In this document: positions 9,194-55,853 of the stretch, in pieces
Position numbering within the stretch: position 1 is the stretch's first letter
Layout: the number at the start of each line of letters is the position of its first letter
NCBI GenBank assembly: GCA_034434815.1
Contig: DAOTYO010000053.1
Location: 201 to 64,200 of the forward strand
Direction of reading: 5' to 3'
DNA: 64,000 nt
DNA from: Dehalococcoidia bacterium
GTDB taxonomy: Bacteria > Chloroflexota > Dehalococcoidia > SZUA-161 > SpSt-899
Notes under the pieces: generated by a model
Told to the model about the DNA's origin: nothing
Database searches by the model: none
What the model saw: the letters and a program-made list of their open reading frames with translations, nothing else
Program-made: the position numbers and the translations under genes

Positions 9194-9679
9194 TCATGGT
9201 TCTATCAGTGCACCCTCCACTGCAAGTTCAAAGACGCGTGCCGGACGCTTGCAAAGCGGCATGATATCGAAGTTGATATAGCCCGCCGGTTCGAGCGTGA
9301 ATCCATCCGGAAACCGCGCGTCTTTCTCTTCCCAGAGAATATTGCCCTCCCGATCTTTCACCCGATAAATCAATGCCTCAAACGAAAGCCTTTTGGCCGA
9401 TGTGTTCCTCAGCCAGCCCTTGACCCATGCGATGGACCATGCCTCGCCGGTGGCCTGATCCCATCGCACCTCCAGTTCCGGAGGGCCATCGTATGCGAAT
9501 TCGTATTCCCCCACATTGGCCCCGGTGCCTTGGACAACGTCCATCGGGTCGGCCTGCGGGTGCGGACTGAGGAGATAGATCGCTCCCCCGACGGCCACTG
9601 CCAAAAGGCAGAGGCCGAAGGCCAGCGTCCTCCGTCTTTGCGCCCTCCGCTGTTTACGCTCCCCGATTGAATCGAACAT
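9194..9679 (-). CDS. hypothetical single-pass membrane protein
   Basis: 161 aa; basic N-terminus then TM helix LAFGLCLLAVAVGGAIYLL; sits between the two WWGWWP paralogs. Confidence 0.5.
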   Translation of the reverse strand: MFDSIGERKQRRAQRRRTLAFGLCLLAVAVGGAIYLLSPHPQADPMDVVQGTGANVGEYEFAYDGPPELEVRWDQATGEAWSIAWVKGWLRNTSAKRLSFEALIYRVKDREGNILWEEKDARFPDGFTLEPAGYINFDIMPLCKRPARVFELAVEGALIEP

Positions 9680-9762
9680 GATCTCATTGCCGTGCGGAGG
9701 CTTTGAACTGCCGACTCCTTCTTATGCATCTGTCCGACCGTGTCCTCCGCGAAGGGATGTTG

Positions 9763-10566
9763 CTACCATCCGCCCGTTTCGTGTTCGGCCGTTTCCCACC
9801 CCGCATACTCATCGCCCCCATCGAACTCATCCATCTCTTCTTCCGTCTCTTCCGGGGGCCACCAACCCCACCAATCCTCATGCCCGCAGGCGCTGCATTT
9901 GACAAGGCTCACGACGTATCCGTGGGCCCCGCACTGCTGGCACTCGAACGTATTCTGAATGTTGTACCCCATGGTGGAGCCCAGTTTCCGAACGATGCTC
10001 TTGCTTTGAGAGGTCGTCTTCTGGACCTGCCCGGATAGGGCCTGTATCTGTGAAGAAAGGGCCTGAACGGCGCTGGTCACCTTCGCCAGTTGTTGTTGCA
10101 TCTGGGCGATCTTCTGCAGCGAAGGATCCTTCTTTGCCTCCTGTTGGATCTGGCAGATGGTGATGACCGAGCCTTCGAGGGCTTCCACCCGCTTGACGAG
10201 ATCGGCGTCGGGGCCCTTGGAAGGAGATGCGCTTTTGACGGATCTCTCGATGGACTCCATCCTTCCCGCCAGGCTTTCCAATCGCTCGACGCGTTTTGAA
10301 AGGGCGGCGATCGCCTCTTCGAGGGATTTCAGCTCTTCCGCTGGAACGGCCGCCAGCGATGGGGCGGGTGCGGTGCTCACGACCGGGGCGGGTTCCTCTC
10401 TGGCTTTGGGCGGAGGCGTGCTGACTTTCTCCGGCTTGGGGGCCGGCTTTGGCTCAGGGGGCGGTGGCGGGGGTGGGGGCGGAGCAGCCGCCTTCGGCTT
10501 CTCCTGAGGCACATGCCCCGCCAGAAGCGCATCGATTGCGGCCTGTGATAATGTCTCTTCCGCCAT
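9763..10566 (-). CDS. putative CheY-P-binding output protein: FliM-like N-terminal peptide + Pro-rich linker + coiled coil + zinc ribbon + WWGWWP + acidic tail, paralog 2
   Basis: N-terminus MAEETLSQAAIDALLAG matches the LSQxEIDALL CheY-binding peptide of FliM/FliY; PPPPPPPPPEPKPAPKP linker; C-terminal FECQQCGAHGYVVSLVKCSACGHEDWWGWWP with spacing identical to paralog 1; GGAGAAGG RBS. Confidence 0.7.
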   Translation of the reverse strand: MAEETLSQAAIDALLAGHVPQEKPKAAAPPPPPPPPPEPKPAPKPEKVSTPPPKAREEPAPVVSTAPAPSLAAVPAEELKSLEEAIAALSKRVERLESLAGRMESIERSVKSASPSKGPDADLVKRVEALEGSVITICQIQQEAKKDPSLQKIAQMQQQLAKVTSAVQALSSQIQALSGQVQKTTSQSKSIVRKLGSTMGYNIQNTFECQQCGAHGYVVSLVKCSACGHEDWWGWWPPEETEEEMDEFDGGDEYAGWETAEHETGGW

Positions 10567-10578
10567 AGGCCTTCTCCG

Positions 10579-11676
10579 CTAGAGATCCAGAATCTCCGTG
10601 ATCAGCTTGAACTGGTGCTCCGGTTTCGAAAGATCGATATCGTAAGGAGGATAGACCTCCTTCCCCTCGACGTCGTAGCAAACGCGCACCACCGGCCGAC
10701 CGATATGCCCGATGTTCGCGTTGGTGATGATCCCCGATTCCCGGGTGTTGAGCCGGACCATGACGCCGCTCGGGTAGACGGGCACGCGGCGCGCGAATAC
10801 CTGAACGAGCTCCGGATCGAACAACTCCCCCGCTGAGGCCATGATGCTCTCGAAGGCATCCATGGGACTGTAAGGTCTGTGCTTGGGCCGGTAGGATACG
10901 AGCTCGTAGTACGTTTCCGCCATGCCGATGATCTGCGCGATGGGGGAGATATCCCATCCCTTGGCGCCCGTGGGATAGCCGCTCCCATCCCATCGCTCGT
11001 GATGCTGAAGGATGGCTTGAACGACGGGCTTCGGGATCCGCTCGATCCGCGATAGCAATTCATACCCATATATCGGATGCTTTTCGAACTCCTTGCGATC
11101 CGCCTCCGAGAGGGAATCCTTTTCCTTCCAGACCTCCGGTCGGATCCAGATATAGCCGATGTTCTCGAGCATGGCCGCCCGGCTCACGTTGGCCAGTTCG
11201 TTCGCATCGAATCCGGCTTCCTTGGCCAGAAGAATGGCCAAGGCCGTGATCTGCACGGGCAAGAAGAATTCATAGTCCGCTATCGAGATGCATCCGGTGA
11301 GATCGGGTTCCCCCAAGGGAACTTGCAAAACGGCTTGCAGAATGGCATGTCCGAACCTCTCTACCTCGAGCCGTGCCGCGTAGATTTCCGCATCTCCCGG
11401 GTTCTTCTGATCGGGTTTGCGCTGAATGCTCAGGAGCTTGCGCATGGCCTCTGTGGCGTCTTTGTGAATTTCCGGCCGGACGAGCGGCTGAATGACGAGA
11501 TCGGAGACACGGCTGTCCTCGATGAAGAGTTCCCAGACCTCCTTCTCCCACAGGAACCCGATGTGTTTCTGCTGAAGCTCGACGTTGGCCGGCAGAAGCA
11601 TTTTCCCGTGCCGGTCGATGACCGGCTTGGCAAGCTCCATACCCACCTTCGCCTTCTCTACCGATACCCGTCGCAT
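10579..11676 (-). CDS. HD-GYP domain cyclic-di-GMP phosphodiesterase, copy 1
   Basis: 365 aa; HD motif region and HHERWDGSGYP signature; strong [12 protein letters not shown]. Confidence 0.85.
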   Translation of the reverse strand: MRRVSVEKAKVGMELAKPVIDRHGKMLLPANVELQQKHIGFLWEKEVWELFIEDSRVSDLVIQPLVRPEIHKDATEAMRKLLSIQRKPDQKNPGDAEIYAARLEVERFGHAILQAVLQVPLGEPDLTGCISIADYEFFLPVQITALAILLAKEAGFDANELANVSRAAMLENIGYIWIRPEVWKEKDSLSEADRKEFEKHPIYGYELLSRIERIPKPVVQAILQHHERWDGSGYPTGAKGWDISPIAQIIGMAETYYELVSYRPKHRPYSPMDAFESIMASAGELFDPELVQVFARRVPVYPSGVMVRLNTRESGIITNANIGHIGRPVVRVCYDVEGKEVYPPYDIDLSKPEHQFKLITEILDL

Positions 11677-19400: not shown

Positions 19401-21734
19401 CTACCGGGAGGCAAGTGCCGCTTCCTTCGAGAGCCTCTCCTGTTCGAGTTTGAAAGCGGATATCGCCTCCTGAAGCATCGTTGCCATATCCTTCAAGGTC
19501 TGGGTGGAGACGATGATCTCGTCCACCTGAGCGCCCATCTCTTCGGCGGCCGCCGAAACCTGTTCGGTCGCGGCGCTGTTCTCTTCGGCGACACCGGCCA
19601 CACTTTCGATGGATTTGCCCACCTCCTCGCTGGTGGAGGCCATTTGCTGGGCGGCGGCGGTGTTCATCTCGGTGATGCTGCCCACACCGTCAATGATGGA
19701 TACGAGCTCATTGGTGGAAGCGCTGATCTGTTCGGCGCCGGCCGAGATCTGTTCGATCTGATTGCTGACGGCGGCGGTGGCCTTGAGGATATCTTCGAGC
19801 GCATCGCCGGCTTCACTGGCGAGGCGATAGCCATCCTTCACTTCCTGAGCCCCTTCTTGCATCGCCTTCACCGCCTCGGCAACGCCCTTCTGAATGTTCC
19901 GGATGAGATCGGCGATCTCCTTGGTGGCGGAGGCCGTCCGCTCCGCGAGTTTGCGCACTTCATCCGAAACGACGGCGAATCCTCGACCGTGCTCGCCCGC
20001 GCGGGCCGCCTCGATGGCGGCGTTCAGGGCCAAGAGATTCGTCTGCGCGGCGATATCGTCAATCACGGCCACGATCTTGCCGATCTCTTCGGATTGGGTT
20101 CCCAGCCGGGTAACCTTGGCGGAGGCATCGTCCACAGTGGCGGTGATGCGCTCCATGCCTTCGACGGTCTGGCGGGCCTTGTCCGCACCCTTCCCGGCCG
20201 CTTCTGCGGCCGTCTTGGAACCTTCGGCGGCGGCGTTGGCGCTCTTGGCCATGGCTTCCATGGAAGTGGAAATCTCGCTGATGGCGGACGAGGCCTTCCC
20301 GACGCCTTCGGCCTGATCACGTGAGCCCTGCGCCACTTGCTCGATGATCTGGGCCAGTTGCTGCATGATCTGGGCGGATTGCTGCGCGGTGGCGGCCTGA
20401 TCCCCTGCGCCCTTGGCCATCTCCTGAGCGGTGGAGGCGACTTGCTGGGTCGCTTGACCCGCCTGTTTGGCCGCCACGGCCAGTTGTTCGCTGGCGCGGG
20501 CCAGTTGGTTCGCACTTTCCTTGACCTTGCCCACGACCATGATCAGATTCTCGGTCATCTGGGCGAAGGCCCTCAGGAGATGATCTTCTTCCGACCGCGG
20601 CTGGACGCGAACGGTGAGATCGCCTTCCGCAATCCGAATGGCGATGGCCGTGACCGCATTGAGGGAGTCGATCAGCACATTGAGATTGTTGCGAATCTCG
20701 TTGAAATCGCCTTTGTATTCGGTGGTGATCTTCTCGGGGATGTCACCTTTGGAAATTCGATTGATATAAGCTGCGGCGGCTCTCAGCGGATTGATGACCG
20801 CGTCCAATGTATCGTTAAAGCCCTGGATCACCTTCTGATAGTCGCCCCGGTGCTTAGCGGCATCGGCGCGAACATCGAGCCTTCCTTCCGTGGCCGCCTC
20901 CGCCAGCATTCGCGCATCGGTGACCAGAGCACCGACCGCTTCGATGCAGCCGTTGAGGCCGTCGCGGATCTTGTTGAAATCGCCGTTGTAGTCCTCGGTG
21001 ATCTTGGCCGGGATCTCGCCGCTCGCGATCTTGCCGATGTATTCGATCGCCCGATTGATTGCGCCCACGAAGATATCGATCAGGGCGTTGATGCTTCGGA
21101 CGATCGTCTGATAGTTGCCCTCGAACTTGGCGATATCGGCGCGGGCGGTCAATTGGCCCGCCGCCGCCGCCTCCATGAGCTCCTGAATGCTATCGGCGAT
21201 CTGGGTTTCCTTGCTGATGTCCACGATGTATTCCAGTGCGCCGATGATGTTCCCCTCGGCATCTTTGAGCGGTGTGGCCGTGTACCGGATGCTCATCGGT
21301 CCGGAGGGAAGGCTGGCCTCGGTATCGCCGGTGAAGACCCCGTCTTCGCTCATCGCTTGGGCACACCGGCATTCCTTGGATTGGCAATGATAGGTCTGGA
21401 ACAGTTCATAGCACTTGTGCCCCACGATCTCGCTCGTGGCCTTGCCCAGCATCTTGGCCGTTTTGCGGTTGACGTAAGTGATGGTGAAATCCGTATCAAT
21501 GGCGACTACCGGCGTGGGCAGGGCATCGAGGTACATCCCTTTCTGTTTGGCTTCGCCGAGTTCAGCCCTGAGGGATTCGAGCTCCTTCTTGCATTTGGTT
21601 GCTCCCCCCTCGGTTGATTTTGGTGCCTTCGCCGGAGGCGCCTCAGCCGGCATGGCTTCGACATCCGTGATCTGTGGAGACGATAGTTTCTTCTTCGCTG
21701 GCATTGCTTCCTCCTTTGCCGTTTCTCCCACCAT
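19401..21734 (-). CDS. soluble methyl-accepting chemotaxis protein with N-terminal Cys-rich PAS domain and HAMP-like repeats
   Basis: 777 aa; no TM helix; PAS-like region containing [21 protein letters not shown]; repeated GDIPxKITxxYxGDFN HAMP-like units; C-terminal MCP signalling domain ([35 protein letters not shown]). Confidence 0.9.
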
Positions 21735-32440: not shown

Positions 32441-33181
32441 TCATGCGGTGATATGCCCGCCGTTCAGTGGAATGACTTGGCCTGTGATCCATGAAGCCTC
32501 GTTGGAGGCCAGATAGATCACCGCTGCGGCCGCGTCCTCGGGGGTGCCGGGGCGAGGGATGGGATAGCCTCGGGTGGATTGCCGGGCTTCGGGGAAGGTG
32601 TCCATCACCGCAAGGCTGATGCAATTCACGGTGACCCCCGAGCGGCCCACCTCGCTTGCAAGCTGTTTGGAGAACCCCACCGCCCCCGCCTTGCCGGCGC
32701 TGTAGAGGCAAATGCCCATGCCGCTGCCGGCCCGATACCCTTCCGATGAGATGGTGATGATGCGGCCCCATCCCCGCTCGCACATGGAATCGATCACCGC
32801 CTTTACGCAGTAAAGCACGCCGTAGAGATTGATCTTGATGTACTTGTCCCACTCCTCGATGGGCAGTTCCCGGAACTTGGTGGGGGTCATGCCGGTGGGG
32901 GGGATGCCGGCGTTATTGACCAGAATATCCACCGGCCCGAGGGTGAAGCGTGTCTCATCCACCATGCGGCGGACGGCGTTGAAGGCGGTCACGTCCGCGG
33001 GCACGGCGATGGCTTGGCCGCCGCCGCGGCGGATTTCCTCGGCGACCGATTGAGCGCGGTCGGGGTAAAAGTCGTTCACGGCCACCGCTGCCCCCTGTTG
33101 GGCGAGCGCCCGGGCGATTCCGGCGCCGATGTTCCGGCCGGCGCCGGTTACCAGTGCTACCCGACCTTTCAGATCGAACAT
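32441..33181 (-). CDS. short-chain dehydrogenase/reductase (SDR)
   Basis: 246 aa; TGAGRNIGAGIA cofactor motif; NNAG; YSAGK catalytic motif. Confidence 0.85.
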   Translation of the reverse strand: MFDLKGRVALVTGAGRNIGAGIARALAQQGAAVAVNDFYPDRAQSVAEEIRRGGGQAIAVPADVTAFNAVRRMVDETRFTLGPVDILVNNAGIPPTGMTPTKFRELPIEEWDKYIKINLYGVLYCVKAVIDSMCERGWGRIITISSEGYRAGSGMGICLYSAGKAGAVGFSKQLASEVGRSGVTVNCISLAVMDTFPEARQSTRGYPIPRPGTPEDAAAAVIYLASNEASWITGQVIPLNGGHITA

Positions 33182-38055: not shown

Positions 38056-38565
38056 ATGAATGACGAAAACCGGACCGATCCAGAACTGACGTCTCCCGGA
38101 ACCGAGACGGGGGGCGTCTCTTTGGCGGAGGAGTACGAGATATGGATTCTCCTGACTCAGGTGACCGAAGGGATGCTCAAGTCCCGCGACAGCGAACTCC
38201 GGCCCTTCGGGCTTTCGGCGATTCAGTTTGCGCTTCTGTGGGTTGTGAAGACCGCCGATGCCGCCCCTACGGCGAGCGAGATTGCCCGGCGGCTGATGCG
38301 GCAACCGGCCTCGATCTATCAATTGCTCGACCGGATGGAGGCTCAGGGGCTTGTCCGGTGTGTGCGGAGCGCCGAGGGAAAACGGGAAGTCCGGGTGGAG
38401 GTCACCGAGAAAGGAGCTGAAGCGTATCGTCAAGCGCGGCATGCCCGTCAGGTGATCCCTCGGATCCTCGGGGCGCTCACGGTGGAAGAACGCGATGTCC
38501 TCAAGGCCGTTCTCGAAAAGCTGCGCGTCCGCGTGTATGGGGAAGTTGCAGAGCAGCCATACTAA
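38056..38565 (+). CDS. MarR family transcriptional regulator
   Basis: Start at MNDENRT with AAAGGAG 8 nt upstream; winged-helix region (LSAIQFALLWVV...ASEIARRLMRQPASIYQLLDRMEAQGLVRCVRSAEGKREVRV). Confidence 0.85.
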   Translation: MNDENRTDPELTSPGTETGGVSLAEEYEIWILLTQVTEGMLKSRDSELRPFGLSAIQFALLWVVKTADAAPTASEIARRLMRQPASIYQLLDRMEAQGLVRCVRSAEGKREVRVEVTEKGAEAYRQARHARQVIPRILGALTVEERDVLKAVLEKLRVRVYGEVAEQPY

Positions 38566-54785: not shown

Positions 54786-54862
54786 TGGTACCCCTGGTGC
54801 GATTCGAACGCACGACACGCGGTTTAGGAAACCGCTGCTCTATCCTTCTGAGCTACAGGGGC
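54786..54862 (-). tRNA. tRNA-Arg (anticodon CCU), CCA encoded
   Basis: Minus-strand sequence GCCCCTGTAGCTCAGAAGGATAGAGCAGCGGTTTCCTAAACCGCGTGTCGTGCGTTCGAATCGCACCAGGGGTACCA folds as a cloverleaf: 7-bp acceptor stem (G1-U72 wobble), D-arm AGCTCAGAAGGATAGAGC, anticodon stem GCGGT/ACCGC with loop TTCCTAA, T-arm GTGCGTTCGAATCGCAC. Confidence 0.85.
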
Positions 54863-55015
54863 TCGGTTTCAGAAAGGCCGGGGCGAACGAACACATGGAG
54901 AAGTGTACCGGACTACCCTTCCCGACCGCGCTTCCCTACCGGCGCGCATAGGCCTCGGCCCGCTTCGGTTCTATGATATGAGAACGGCCGCCCCTTTGTA
55001 AAGACGGGGCGTTTC

Positions 55016-55043
55016 GTAGGGGCGGTTCGCGAACCGCCCCTAC
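55016..55043. repeat. REP-like perfect palindrome GTAGGGGCGGTTCGCGAACCGCCCCTAC
   Basis: 28-bp perfect palindrome 70 bp downstream of the RAYT gene end; shares GTAGGGGCG/CGCCCCTAC termini with palindromes at 55381-55408 and 55832-55853. Confidence 0.7.
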
Positions 55044-55111
55044 AACCGTGTGCGCACCGAATTGGCCATCGCCTCATAGACCACCCCCAACTGTGGGGCC
55101 GGTGTTTTTCG

Positions 55112-55768
55112 TCAATCGAACCATTCCCTATCCGATGGGTCGATGCCGGTGGCAAGCACATTCTCGCGATCCAGATGCCACCGGAGAGGATTGGTCATGA
55201 TATATTCACGGATGCGGTCCAGCGAATCCTCGTTTCGGATGACGTGTTCGTAATAGTTGCGTTGCCAGACGGGTGTCCCCGGCATGCCGCGGCGTTCATT
55301 GATGCGTTTGGCGGCGGCGGATTTGAACCCGGCAATAAACGATGACAACGATCGTTTGGCGGGTCCCCGCGGTTGTTCTTGTAGGGGCGACCGGCCGGTC
55401 GCCCCTACGCCGGTCGCCCCTACGCCGGTCGCCCCTACGCCGGTCGCCCCTACGCCGGTCGCCCCTACGCCGGTCGCCCCTACACCGGTGGATTCCATAA
55501 TCCACACGATGCCATGAATATGATTGGGCATCACCACGAATTCATCGGCAAACAATTCGATTTCTCGACGGATGTCCGCCGAACGAAACCATTCCTCCCG
55601 CACGATGAAGCCGTATTCATTCAACCGCATTTCCCCATCCACCACCTCACCGAAAAGGTGTTCGCGGTCTTGCGTGCAGAGGGTCACAAAATAGGCACCC
55701 GCTTGCGTGTAATCGTATCCCCTCAGGCGGATGGTGTGGCGGTGATGTTTCTCAGGATCGTACCGCAT
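55112..55768 (-). CDS. REP-associated tyrosine transposase (RAYT, IS200/IS605 TnpA-like) carrying an in-frame (GVGAT)x6 repeat insertion
   Basis: Start at MRYDPEKHHRH; HuH motif VMPNHIHGIV and catalytic Tyr region WQRNYYEHVIRNEDSLDRIREYI; the 40-aa insert between them is encoded by the tandem 15-bp repeat; the upstream part of ORF 55112-56485 is read-through. Confidence 0.75.
   Translation of the reverse strand: MRYDPEKHHRHTIRLRGYDYTQAGAYFVTLCTQDREHLFGEVVDGEMRLNEYGFIVREEWFRSADIRREIELFADEFVVMPNHIHGIVWIMESTGVGATGVGATGVGATGVGATGVGATGVGATGRSPLQEQPRGPAKRSLSSFIAGFKSAAAKRINERRGMPGTPVWQRNYYEHVIRNEDSLDRIREYIMTNPLRWHLDRENVLATGIDPSDREWFD
55381..55484. repeat. REP-like palindrome GTAGGGGCGACCGGCCGGTCGCCCCTAC followed by 6 tandem copies of 15-bp unit CCGGTCGCCCCTACG
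   Basis: Perfect 28-bp palindrome at 55381-55408 whose right arm is reiterated 6 times to 55484 (last unit ...CTACA); lies inside the RAYT coding sequence, in frame. Confidence 0.8.
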
Positions 55769-55831
55769 CGCTACGCCGTCCTCGCCTTCCCCAACCGAAT
55801 AGGGGGCCGGTTCGCGTTCCAGGGGCGGTTC

Positions 55832-55853
55832 GCGAATTGCCCCTTCTTCCACG
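55832..55853. repeat. REP-like imperfect palindrome GGGGCGGTTCGCGAATTGCCCC
   Basis: Near-identical to the central part of the 55016 palindrome; lies ~65 bp upstream of the RAYT start, preceded by a second GGGGGCCGGTTCGCG motif. Confidence 0.55.

Follow-up and report, generated by a model that had tools for sequence, protein, structure and literature searches.

A RAYT gene of a Dehalococcoidia bacterium carries an in-frame REP palindrome and a tandem array of REP-arm units

What does it signify when a RAYT gene carries, within its own reading frame, a palindrome of the REP type that the encoded enzyme presumably mobilises, together with a tandem array of 15-bp units? The question is raised by a 64,000 nucleotide stretch of a Dehalococcoidia bacterium assembly (GCA_034434815.1, contig DAOTYO010000053.1), hereafter the window. 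A first-pass annotation described a RAYT gene with cognate GTAG REPs on both sides and, within the open reading frame, another REP together with a 15-bp array that keeps the frame, and this description was confirmed. It also regarded the arrangement as unusual and proposed a recent REP insertion, either inactivating or tolerated in a surface loop. Our analysis assigns a probability of about 0.8 to the reading that the locus is a REPtron, consisting of a single-copy subclass 2.4/group 4 RAYT and its cognate double-foot GTAG...CTAC REPs (one downstream, a decayed one upstream and one internal), in which the internal REP is a tolerated insert, held at the nucleotide level, and the array a product of slippage.

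The RAYT (TnpA-REP) gene is located on the minus strand at positions 55112 to 55768 and is single-copy within the window. The open reading frame listing gives a product of 218 amino acids, with an ATG at 55768 and the stop codon at 55112-55114, while the corresponding database protein (P0001) uses an upstream start and comprises 246 amino acids. M-x-YDP forms the start in most of the 7948 homologues, and a GAGGA Shine-Dalgarno-like motif is found 5′ of the ATG at 55768. Scans for promoters and terminators returned nothing specific to the RAYT, and Rfam models matched only tRNA. The 218 amino acid protein passes the Pfam Y1_Tnp threshold (27.5 bits; cutoff: 23). Its match to the NCBIfam model NF047646 (REP_Tyr_transpos; 69.2 bits) falls under the curated cutoff of 80 because an insert of 35 residues splits the match in two, and not through the loss of motifs.

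The translated product contains the HuH motif NHIH (N82-H85; 55514-55525, minus strand), followed by the string WQRNYYEHVIR (W168-R178; 55235-55267, minus strand), which constitutes the W motif and GTAG-guide recognition strand, and by the Y motif YIMTNP (55187-55204, minus strand), with the catalytic Tyr189 and Asn193. The second of these aligns with residues 94-104 of E. coli TnpA-REP (4ER8), including the GTAG-binding W94, Q95, W99, E100, H101 and R104, and the third with Y115...N119 of the same structure; the roles of the E. coli residues, including the GTAG contacts, are taken from PMC6006769 (Fig. S11). The YYEHV segment had initially been taken for a catalytic helix, but on this alignment it is the GTAG-recognition strand and the catalytic tyrosine is Y189 in YIMTNP. 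All residues that are invariant in a 42-sequence alignment of homologues are retained (H83, H85, W168, Q169, E174, H175, R178, Y189 and N193), and I190 in the Y motif is likewise invariant.

An AlphaFold2 model of the protein has a core with pLDDT values above 90, while residues 96-130 fall below 50. The best PDB match of the model is 4er8_A, the TnpA-REP/REP complex (Foldseek E-value: 1e-6; rmsd: 2.6 Å). Judged by its open reading frame, its catalytic and GTAG-binding residues and its confidently modelled core, the RAYT gene is intact and has not been inactivated.

Three palindromes accompany this gene. Downstream, 69 nt past the stop codon, lies a flanking double-foot REP (GTAGGGGCGGTTCGCGAACCGCCCCTAC; 55016-55043), a 28-nt palindrome that is 100% self-complementary, as first described. 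A second perfect 28-nt palindrome, the internal double-foot REP (GTAGGGGCGACCGGCCGGTCGCCCCTAC; 55381-55408), falls inside the coding sequence between H85 of the HuH motif and the catalytic Y189, and encodes VGATGRSPL (residues 121-129). Upstream, approximately 50 nt 5′ of the ATG, a decayed flanking REP (CCAGGGGCGGTTCGCGAATTGCCCCTTC; 55819-55846) has lost both feet (GTAG and CTAC), is identical to the downstream REP at 23/28 positions and shows three mismatches to the generic pattern. The imperfect upstream palindrome of the first-pass annotation therefore exists, but lies at these positions rather than at 55832-55853. In tandem with it, an extra degenerate left arm can be read from the sequence (TAGGGGGCCGGTTCGCGT; 55800-55817), which repeats the pattern of arm duplication of the internal array. 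The hairpins take the form GTAGGGGCG...CGCCCCTAC.

The internal REP is continued by five extra 15-nt REP-arm units (55409-55483), which read GTAGGGGCGACCGGC on the coding strand, corresponding to VGATG (residues 96-120), and GCCGGTCGCCCCTAC on the plus strand. Tandem Repeats Finder (TRF) identified one array, at 55394-55489 (period: 15; copies: 6.4; matches: 98%; score: 185), and the minus-strand translation reads VGATG five times and then VGATGRSPL, which equals the originally reported (GVGAT)6. The units follow each other head-to-tail, without spacers and within the open reading frame, and a CRISPR array was rejected as a candidate on these grounds.

Within the window, the palindrome family is confined to the three copies at the RAYT gene, with none in the remaining ~63 kb. 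The arm sequence GTAGGGGCG occurs ten times in the window against 0.4 expected, a number reached by none of 100 shuffles, and nine of the ten occurrences are at the RAYT gene. Looser searches of the window (GGGGCG-N-CGCCCC, and the generic double-foot pattern with three mismatches) yielded nothing outside the REPtron except a weak non-palindromic match at 312-339 and a half-site at 38262.

The lack of further family REPs in the 64 kb, the decay of the upstream flanking REP and the split NCBIfam match with its score below the curated cutoff would all agree with a recent, one-off insertion of a REP that inactivated its cognate RAYT and left a pseudogene in the making. Against this, the open reading frame is intact and every invariant catalytic and DNA-binding residue is kept, with no disabling mutation in the window copy. 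The insert, furthermore, occupies a position shared across the family, where V121, A123, R126 and P128, all encoded by it, fall in nearly invariant columns of the 42-sequence alignment, and homologues that are 57-72% identical to the window RAYT bear the same insert. Since the core is modelled with confidence and the insert as a loop, the second suggestion of the first-pass annotation, tolerance in a surface loop, is the one that is borne out. A recent or inactivating insertion is as such largely refuted, and we regard it as highly improbable. The internal REP fills a permissive, disordered loop between strand β3, which carries the HuH motif, and helix αC, and does so in a stop-free frame; that no REPs were seen in the TAG frame carries no independent weight, as the gene finder left out loops containing stop codons.

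The loop was compared across 70 diverse homologues, which are gene copies found in genome contigs, the closest being only 63% identical to the window RAYT. A perfect GT[AG]G-footed hairpin is present in the HuH-to-WQ interval of 57 of these, from many phyla and in the same loop, which speaks against both a recent insertion and an unusual arrangement. Such hairpins reach a density of 4.98 per kb in this interval, compared to 0.125 per kb beyond 1.5 kb. The distance from PNH to WQRNY is 92 amino acids in the window RAYT and 54-143 amino acids (median: 71) in the 70 homologues. Two genes, L060 and L078, are intact without any internal REP, with HuH-to-WQ intervals of 54-56 amino acids. In L053, the REPs are arranged in BIME-like clusters.

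The loop is conserved at synonymous sites. Of the 'VGA' tripeptides in the loops, 45/52 are encoded by GTAGGGGC[GA], while GTA is the rarest valine codon (14%) in the homologue RAYT genes. The apical stems vary by genome and yet always pair (ACCGG/CCGGT, CACGG/CCGTG, GGTTCG/CGAACC). What is maintained in the internal REP is its nucleotide sequence and not the amino acids that it encodes. The internal REP is identical to a flanking REP of its own locus in 15/29 loci and within two edits of one in 23/29, compared to 1.5% and 5.1%, respectively, when internal and flanking REPs of different loci are paired. In most genomes the internal REP is thus the same as the flanking REPs, or nearly so, and therefore evolves in concert with the substrate family of the enzyme. 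The window locus is one of the five exceptions among the 29, its internal REP (apex: ACCGG/CCGGT) being eight edits apart from its flanking REPs (apex: GGTTCG/CGAACC). The 28-mer of its downstream REP is, however, the internal REP of four other RAYTs (L041, L052, L055 and L068) and a flanking REP in L050. Its internal 28-mer identically ends the array in a Chloracidobacterium RAYT and is present, with one mismatch, in a Thermogemmata RAYT. The perfection of the palindromes could be upheld by repeated re-insertion, gene conversion or selection.

Alternatively, the internal REP could be a functional cis-element rather than a passenger. The RAYT might bind the hairpin of its own gene in single-stranded DNA during replication or transcription, or the GC-rich hairpin might attenuate expression from the mRNA, either of which would result in autoregulation and low levels of the nuclease. 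In a variant of this explanation, the internal copy would be a protected 'master' REP that renews the genomic copies, with the number of arms tuning both the choice and the strength of the hairpin. Conservation of position across phyla (57/70) and of synonymous sites, stems that remain perfect although the proteins of the hosts are only 40-70% identical, and internal REPs that equal the flanking ones in most genomes are in agreement with such a role, as are the 28-mer common to the window, Chloracidobacterium and (with one mismatch) Thermogemmata and the array region, which folds more stably than shuffled sequences (z = -2.45). However, L060 and L078 do without any internal REP, REPs with arm arrays also occur in frame in unrelated genes, where autoregulation would be senseless, and the internal REP of the window is unlike its flanking REPs. 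Local re-insertion or conversion, moreover, explains the concerted evolution equally well. We consider a cis-acting function unlikely and retain the tolerated insert as the preferred reading.

By analogy with RAYT groups 2 and 3, the encoded enzyme is predicted to be a HuH/Tyr single-stranded DNA nuclease-ligase. It would bind the folded REP hairpin, read the GTAG foot by means of the W-Q...(Y/W)-E-H..R strand, and cut and rejoin DNA via a 5′-phosphotyrosine on Y189, as suggested by the biochemistry of the E. coli, Stenotrophomonas and Marinomonas TnpA-REP enzymes (PMC8266576). The 15-bp array may have arisen by tandem amplification of one arm of the hairpin. Each 15-nt unit is complementary at 15/15 positions to the single opposite arm, so that any of the six left arms could pair with the one right arm, and in the predicted fold it is the most distal left arm that does so, with the other arms looped out. 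Replication slippage promoted by the hairpin is the most likely cause, although amplification by the enzyme could leave the same sequence.

Relatives provide evidence that such arrays change in length. TRF detected arrays in 16 of the 70 homologue loops, that of the window included, with a period divisible by three in 14/16. Among Chloracidobacterium proteins that are 96-99% identical, the only differences are in the number of 21-bp units, of which there are 1, 2, 3, 4 or 12, all in frame. Each of the five contigs on record carries this array with the same six units, and the sole other record of the same species (P0121; JGI, three contigs) does not differ in this respect, such that lability of the unit number is seen in relatives only. 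As every unit change keeps the frame, it is the length of the loop alone that changes. Since a change in length must be divisible by 3 nt to persist, the array would constitute a Gly/Val/Ala/Thr linker of variable length rather than an on/off switch. Of the contingency locus envisaged in the first-pass annotation, the labile, frame-preserving unit number is retained, as demonstrated by the 1 to 12 units of Chloracidobacterium, while on/off switching is not. A phase-variable on/off locus was rejected on account of the 15-nt in-frame unit and of the 14/16 homologue arrays with periods divisible by three.

The arm array is furthermore not restricted to RAYT genes. (GTAGGGGCGACCGGC)n followed by a REP is found in frame in unrelated genes of other metagenomes, namely an open reading frame resembling MDR dehydrogenases and one encoding an Fe-S protein, and two related contigs differ in having five and seven arms. 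Scanning metagenomes for tandem arms brought up these genes, but not the lineage of the window itself. This recurrence in other genes would suit an origin of the array in RAYT catalysis rather than in slippage, whereby the enzyme would cut repeatedly at the CT in the 3′ foot (CTAC) beside the hairpin, and each round of cutting and strand transfer would add one foot-plus-arm unit, in the manner of failed termination by rolling-circle HuH enzymes. Every unit contains a complete foot, the plus-strand units ending in CTAC and thus containing CT, which is the dinucleotide cut by group 2 and 3 TnpA-REP enzymes 5′ or 3′ of REPs (PMC8266576). Arrays of one arm beside a single palindrome likewise recur in many RAYTs, with units of 15, 18, 21 or 30 nt, and the left arm is also duplicated at the decayed upstream REP. 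However, short, near-identical units in head-to-tail order are the classic product of slippage, for which no enzyme is needed, and the 21-nt Chloracidobacterium units include sequence that does not belong to the REP. Catalysis as the source of the array is as such doubtful, and slippage remains the favoured origin. The two less favoured explanations may also be combined, in that subclass 2.4 RAYTs would use the intragenic REP as a conserved cis-site for acting on, or regulating, the gene that encodes them, and would directly produce the arm arrays, those of unrelated genes included, by cutting and ligating at the foot. We hold this combination to be improbable. If it were true, the arrays would document, in nature, how RAYTs multiply REPs.

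An in-frame internal REP in a RAYT is not in itself new, having been published for subclass 2.4 in 2018, and the window copy adds one metagenomic member. Three observations extend the published picture: the internal REP mostly agrees with the flanking ones of its own genome and is conserved at synonymous sites; the number of arm units varies among nearly identical strains (Chloracidobacterium; 96-99% identity); and unrelated genes, too, contain the identical arm array in frame. Jointly these point to an active process at the REP feet. The array in the loop could be put to use as a ready-made natural reporter of how group 4 RAYTs process REPs.

Subclass 2.4 of TnpA-REP was defined by Quentin, Siguier, Chandler and Fichant (2018; BMC Genomics 19:475; PMC6006769) and corresponds to RAYT group 4 of Bertels, Gallie and Rainey (2017). 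Its members have the motifs NH[IFV]H, WQ and YIxNNP (Table 1 of PMC6006769) and double-foot REPs. [quoted passage not shown] The window RAYT shows the TnpA-REP fold with a HuH motif, a single catalytic tyrosine and a downstream asparagine that is general to RAYTs, as seen from the 4er8_A match and the alignment. NHIH (82-85) fits NH[IFV]H, W168-Q169 align with W94-Q95 of 4ER8, and YIMTNP (189-194) agrees with YIxNNP at 5/6 positions, T replacing the first N; close homologues have YIMNNP, YILNNP or YILTNP. The variable insertion with short DNA repeats between β3 (HuH) and αC is present, as are canonical long or 'double foot' REPs (5′ GT[AG]G ... C[TC]AC 3′) within approximately 1 kb and the in-frame REP, VGATGRSPL, between H85 and Y189. 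Like the subclass, the window RAYT is without a C-terminal extension domain, and no categorical difference from it was found, although the pure array of the window copy is comparatively long (6 x 15 bp) and its internal REP represents another stem variant than its flanking REPs. For group 4, Bertels et al. (2017) report approximately 14 copies of the flanking 16-mer per replicon, and this low abundance fits the REP-poor window.

E. coli TnpA-REP (group 2; 4ER8; Messing 2012; Ton-Hoang 2012; Corneloup 2021) has the same fold with HuH, Tyr and Asn, conserved GTAG-contact residues and the same REPtron layout with flanking GTAG REPs. It is, however, only ~18% identical to the window RAYT and has a short loop from the HuH motif to the next helix, while the REPs of E. 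coli number hundreds per genome and, unlike those of the window, are single-footed, contain a bulge in the stem and never lie within the gene. The HuH/Y1 fold is also shared by the TnpA proteins of the IS200/IS605 family (IS608, ISDra2), which recognise subterminal single-strand hairpins with a guide tetranucleotide 5′ of the hairpin. These are, however, true insertion sequences, multicopy and with left and right ends, whereas the window gene is single-copy in the window, lacks such ends and has RAYT-specific motifs. The Rickettsia RPEs (Ogata et al. 2000) and the intragenic GTAG/CGTC REPs (Di Nocera et al. 2013; PMC3733652) are likewise in-frame palindromes, which are surface-exposed in functional proteins and of which clusters may encode tens of residues. 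In contrast to these elements, the REP of the window is hosted by the gene for the very enzyme that presumably mobilises it, and the site of the insert is conserved across the subfamily.

The RAYT (REP-associated tyrosine transposase) gene is located on the minus strand (55112-55768) and encodes a 218 amino acid protein with the N-terminus MRYDPEKHHRH. The translated product matches the Pfam Y1_Tnp domain (27.5 bits; cutoff: 23), and its match to the NCBIfam 'REP-associated tyrosine transposase' model (69 bits) falls below the cutoff of 80 because it is broken into two stretches. The database records of this protein (P0001/P0121) start 28 codons upstream of the ATG at 55768 (55769-55852, minus strand), with the N-terminal extension running through a decayed upstream REP (MEEGAIREPPLEREPAPY...). 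Homologues begin with M-x-YDP and a GAGGA motif lies 5′ of the ATG at 55768; the upstream start in these records is probably mis-annotated. Directly downstream of the RAYT gene is a tRNA-Arg(CCT) gene (54786-54862, minus strand). The interval from this tRNA to the downstream REP holds a sigma-70-like site (TTTACA-18-TATCAT; 54973-55002, minus strand), so that the REP lies between the 3′ end of the RAYT gene and the promoter of the tRNA.

The first-pass annotation of a RAYT with a REP palindrome and an in-frame 15-bp array in its reading frame is borne out. Perfect 28-nt palindromes are found 69 nt past the RAYT stop codon (GTAGGGGCGGTTCGCGAACCGCCCCTAC; 55016-55043) and within the ORF (GTAGGGGCGACCGGCCGGTCGCCCCTAC; 55381-55408), while the sole array reported by TRF spans 55394-55489 (period 15; 6.4 copies; 98% matches). 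On the coding strand, this array consists of five additional left arms (GTAGGGGCGACCGGC, translated as VGATG) followed by the complete palindrome (VGATGRSPL). The imperfect flanking palindrome is likewise present, sharing 23/28 positions with the downstream REP, but lies at 55819-55846, slightly off the coordinates first noted; both of its feet are gone, and it is adjoined by a further degenerate left arm (55800-55817). The window contains ten copies of the 9-mer GTAGGGGCG (0.4 expected), nine of them at the RAYT gene. The only copy outside the REPtron (38262-38270, minus strand) lacks a partner arm, appears to be coding and is probably due to chance. Other weak tandem repeats are located at 20328-20385 (21 bp x 2.8; 81-85% matches) and 32879-32910 (15 bp x 2.1).

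By phmmer comparison against PDB sequences, PVWQRNYYEHVIRNEDSLDRIREYIMTNPLR aligns with residues 92-122 of the E. coli TnpA-REP structure (4ER8). The catalytic residues of that enzyme are Y115 and N119, and its contacts to the GTAG guide are W94, Q95, W99, E100, H101 and R104 (PMC6006769). The YYEHV motif, initially read as the catalytic helix, aligns with the GTAG contacts and thus belongs to the GTAG-reading strand; from this alignment, Y189 of the YIMTNP motif is the predicted catalytic tyrosine. The AlphaFold2 model, based on 42 homologues, has 4er8_A, a TnpA-REP/REP hairpin complex, as its top PDB match (E: 1e-6; rmsd: 2.6 Å). The core is modeled at pLDDT > 90 and residues 96-130, corresponding to the array and REP, at < 50, showing that these encode a predicted disordered loop, in agreement with the proposal of an insert tolerated in a surface loop. 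In the 42-way alignment the protein retains every invariant column, including H83, H85, W168, Q169, E174, H175, R178, Y189 and N193. With the ORF intact, inactivation by the insert is rejected, and these data show that the subclass 2.4 RAYT is intact and has its cognate REPs on either side.

A protein search identified 7948 homologues, and all those inspected, a subset of these, contain a hypervariable stretch between NH[IV]HGI and RSLxSFIAGFKS. Its peptides (VGATGRSPL, VGAHGRAPL, VGATRRVAPT, RGDRPVAPT and similar) are translated palindromes, and many of the inspected homologues also carry tandem repeats here. A survey covered 70 gene copies from 80 loci in representative genomes across many phyla; 57 copies carry a perfect GT[AG]G-footed hairpin in their HuH-to-WQ interval, where hairpin density is 4.98 per kb compared to 0.125 per kb at distances above 1.5 kb. 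The internal REP is therefore a family trait, neither unusual nor a recent insertion, as had been supposed. A few members without an insert (L060 and L078) have an interval of 54-56 amino acids, which sets the baseline length. GTAGGGGC[GA] encodes 45 of the 52 'VGA' tripeptides in these loops, even though GTA is the rarest valine codon (14%) in those genes, and the apical stem varies among genomes with pairing kept in all. These comparisons show nucleotide-level conservation of the palindrome and indicate that the constraint acts at the DNA level. It is unlikely that the intragenic hairpin serves as a regulatory site.

Among 29 loci with both REP types, the internal REP is identical to its own flanking REP in fifteen and within two edits in 23, compared to 1.5% and 5.1%, respectively, between different loci; internal and flanking REPs thus undergo concerted evolution. 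Five loci depart from this pattern, among them the window, with an internal apex of ACCGG/CCGGT and a flanking apex of GGTTCG/CGAACC, both of which are found as internal REPs in other phyla. In some RAYTs, such as that of Thermogemmata, an additional internal REP is positioned after the W motif and before the Y motif. The homologue in Thermogemmata fonticola (JACEFB010000001.1; locus L087, 39-3648) has its loop REP at 1804 and this additional one at 1987, and is situated amid a type I restriction-modification operon, its called ORF overlapping the hsdS and hsdR genes on either side; another double-foot REP lies inside hsdS (783-810). A dense BIME-like REP cluster occurs in a Deferrisomatales MAG (L053, ~9500-11500 and beyond), with fifteen GT[AG]G hairpins no more than 1.5 kb from the RAYT and eighteen more across the remaining ~17 kb, nearly all being GTAGGGGCGACGCATGCGTCGCCC, the internal REP of that RAYT, in both orientations. 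Paired RAYT genes of this family, within ~1-1.5 kb of one another, differ in both subtype and internal REP in one locus (L005, 10255-11515) and are near-identical tandem copies in another (L068, 10222-11909).

A metagenome scan with two tandem arms as query identified the (GTAGGGGCGACCGGC)n + CGGTCGCCCCTAC structure, a REP with left arms in tandem, in frame in unrelated ORFs of bioreactor metagenomes. Three related contigs (L082, 370-457; L083, 5-107; L086, ~1990-2073) bear an MDR-dehydrogenase-like ORF (632 amino acids in L086) with arm counts of 5, 7 and at least 6. A 911 amino acid Fe-S/CCG-type protein ORF carries two arms (L084, 2592-2634; L085, 7164-7206), with the REP translated in the other open frame (RRGDRRRGDRPVAPT). 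The arm array is thus a property of the REP, rather than of the RAYT gene.

Chloracidobacterium RAYTs (P0005, P0007, P0009, P0122-P0134; L088, 1792-2050) sharing 96-99% identity differ only in how many 21-bp units they carry (1, 2, 3, 4 or 12). These units start with G[TC]AGGGGC[GA]ACC, and a 28-mer identical to the internal REP of the window closes the array. TRF arrays are present in 16/70 loops, the window's included, fourteen with a period divisible by three. The loop arrays are true variable-number repeats, and arm number is shown to change quickly among relatives, always in frame. The suspected lability therefore holds for these relatives, but the window allele is constant at six units across the five recorded contigs. 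Each left arm in the window is complementary to the sole right arm at 15/15 positions, and in the minimum-energy fold the latter pairs with the most distal left arm, with the others looped out. Alongside these features, we infer that the arrays formed through hairpin-promoted slippage, with frameshifted variants subsequently purged by selection. By extrapolation from groups 2 and 3 (PMC8266576; PDB 4ER8), the RAYT would bind the folded single-stranded REP hairpin, read GTAG, cleave the DNA at a CT or CA close by and rejoin it via Y189. Every unit bears a full foot and ends, on the plus strand, in CTAC, which contains a CT dinucleotide, as might be expected had the RAYT itself made the arrays; we nevertheless consider this improbable and favor slippage.

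Subclass 2.4 of TnpA-REP, equivalent to Bertels RAYT group 4, was defined by Quentin, Siguier, Chandler and Fichant (BMC Genomics 2018; PMC6006769) by NH[IFV]H, WQ and YIxNNP signatures and 'double foot' REPs (5′ GT[AG]G ... [quoted passage not shown] The internal in-frame REP is thus an already published trait of the family, and GTAG REPs in frame in other genes have been catalogued by Di Nocera et al. 2013. Members of group 4 are frequent in Cyanobacteria, Chlorobia and Caldilineae, and their flanking 16-mer occurs at only ~14 copies per replicon (Bertels et al. 2017), with which the REP-poor window is consistent. Concerted evolution, the arm array as a REP property and variable unit number are additions to PMC6006769, and the second REP goes beyond it. 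The window RAYT displays all of the subclass 2.4 features that were examined.
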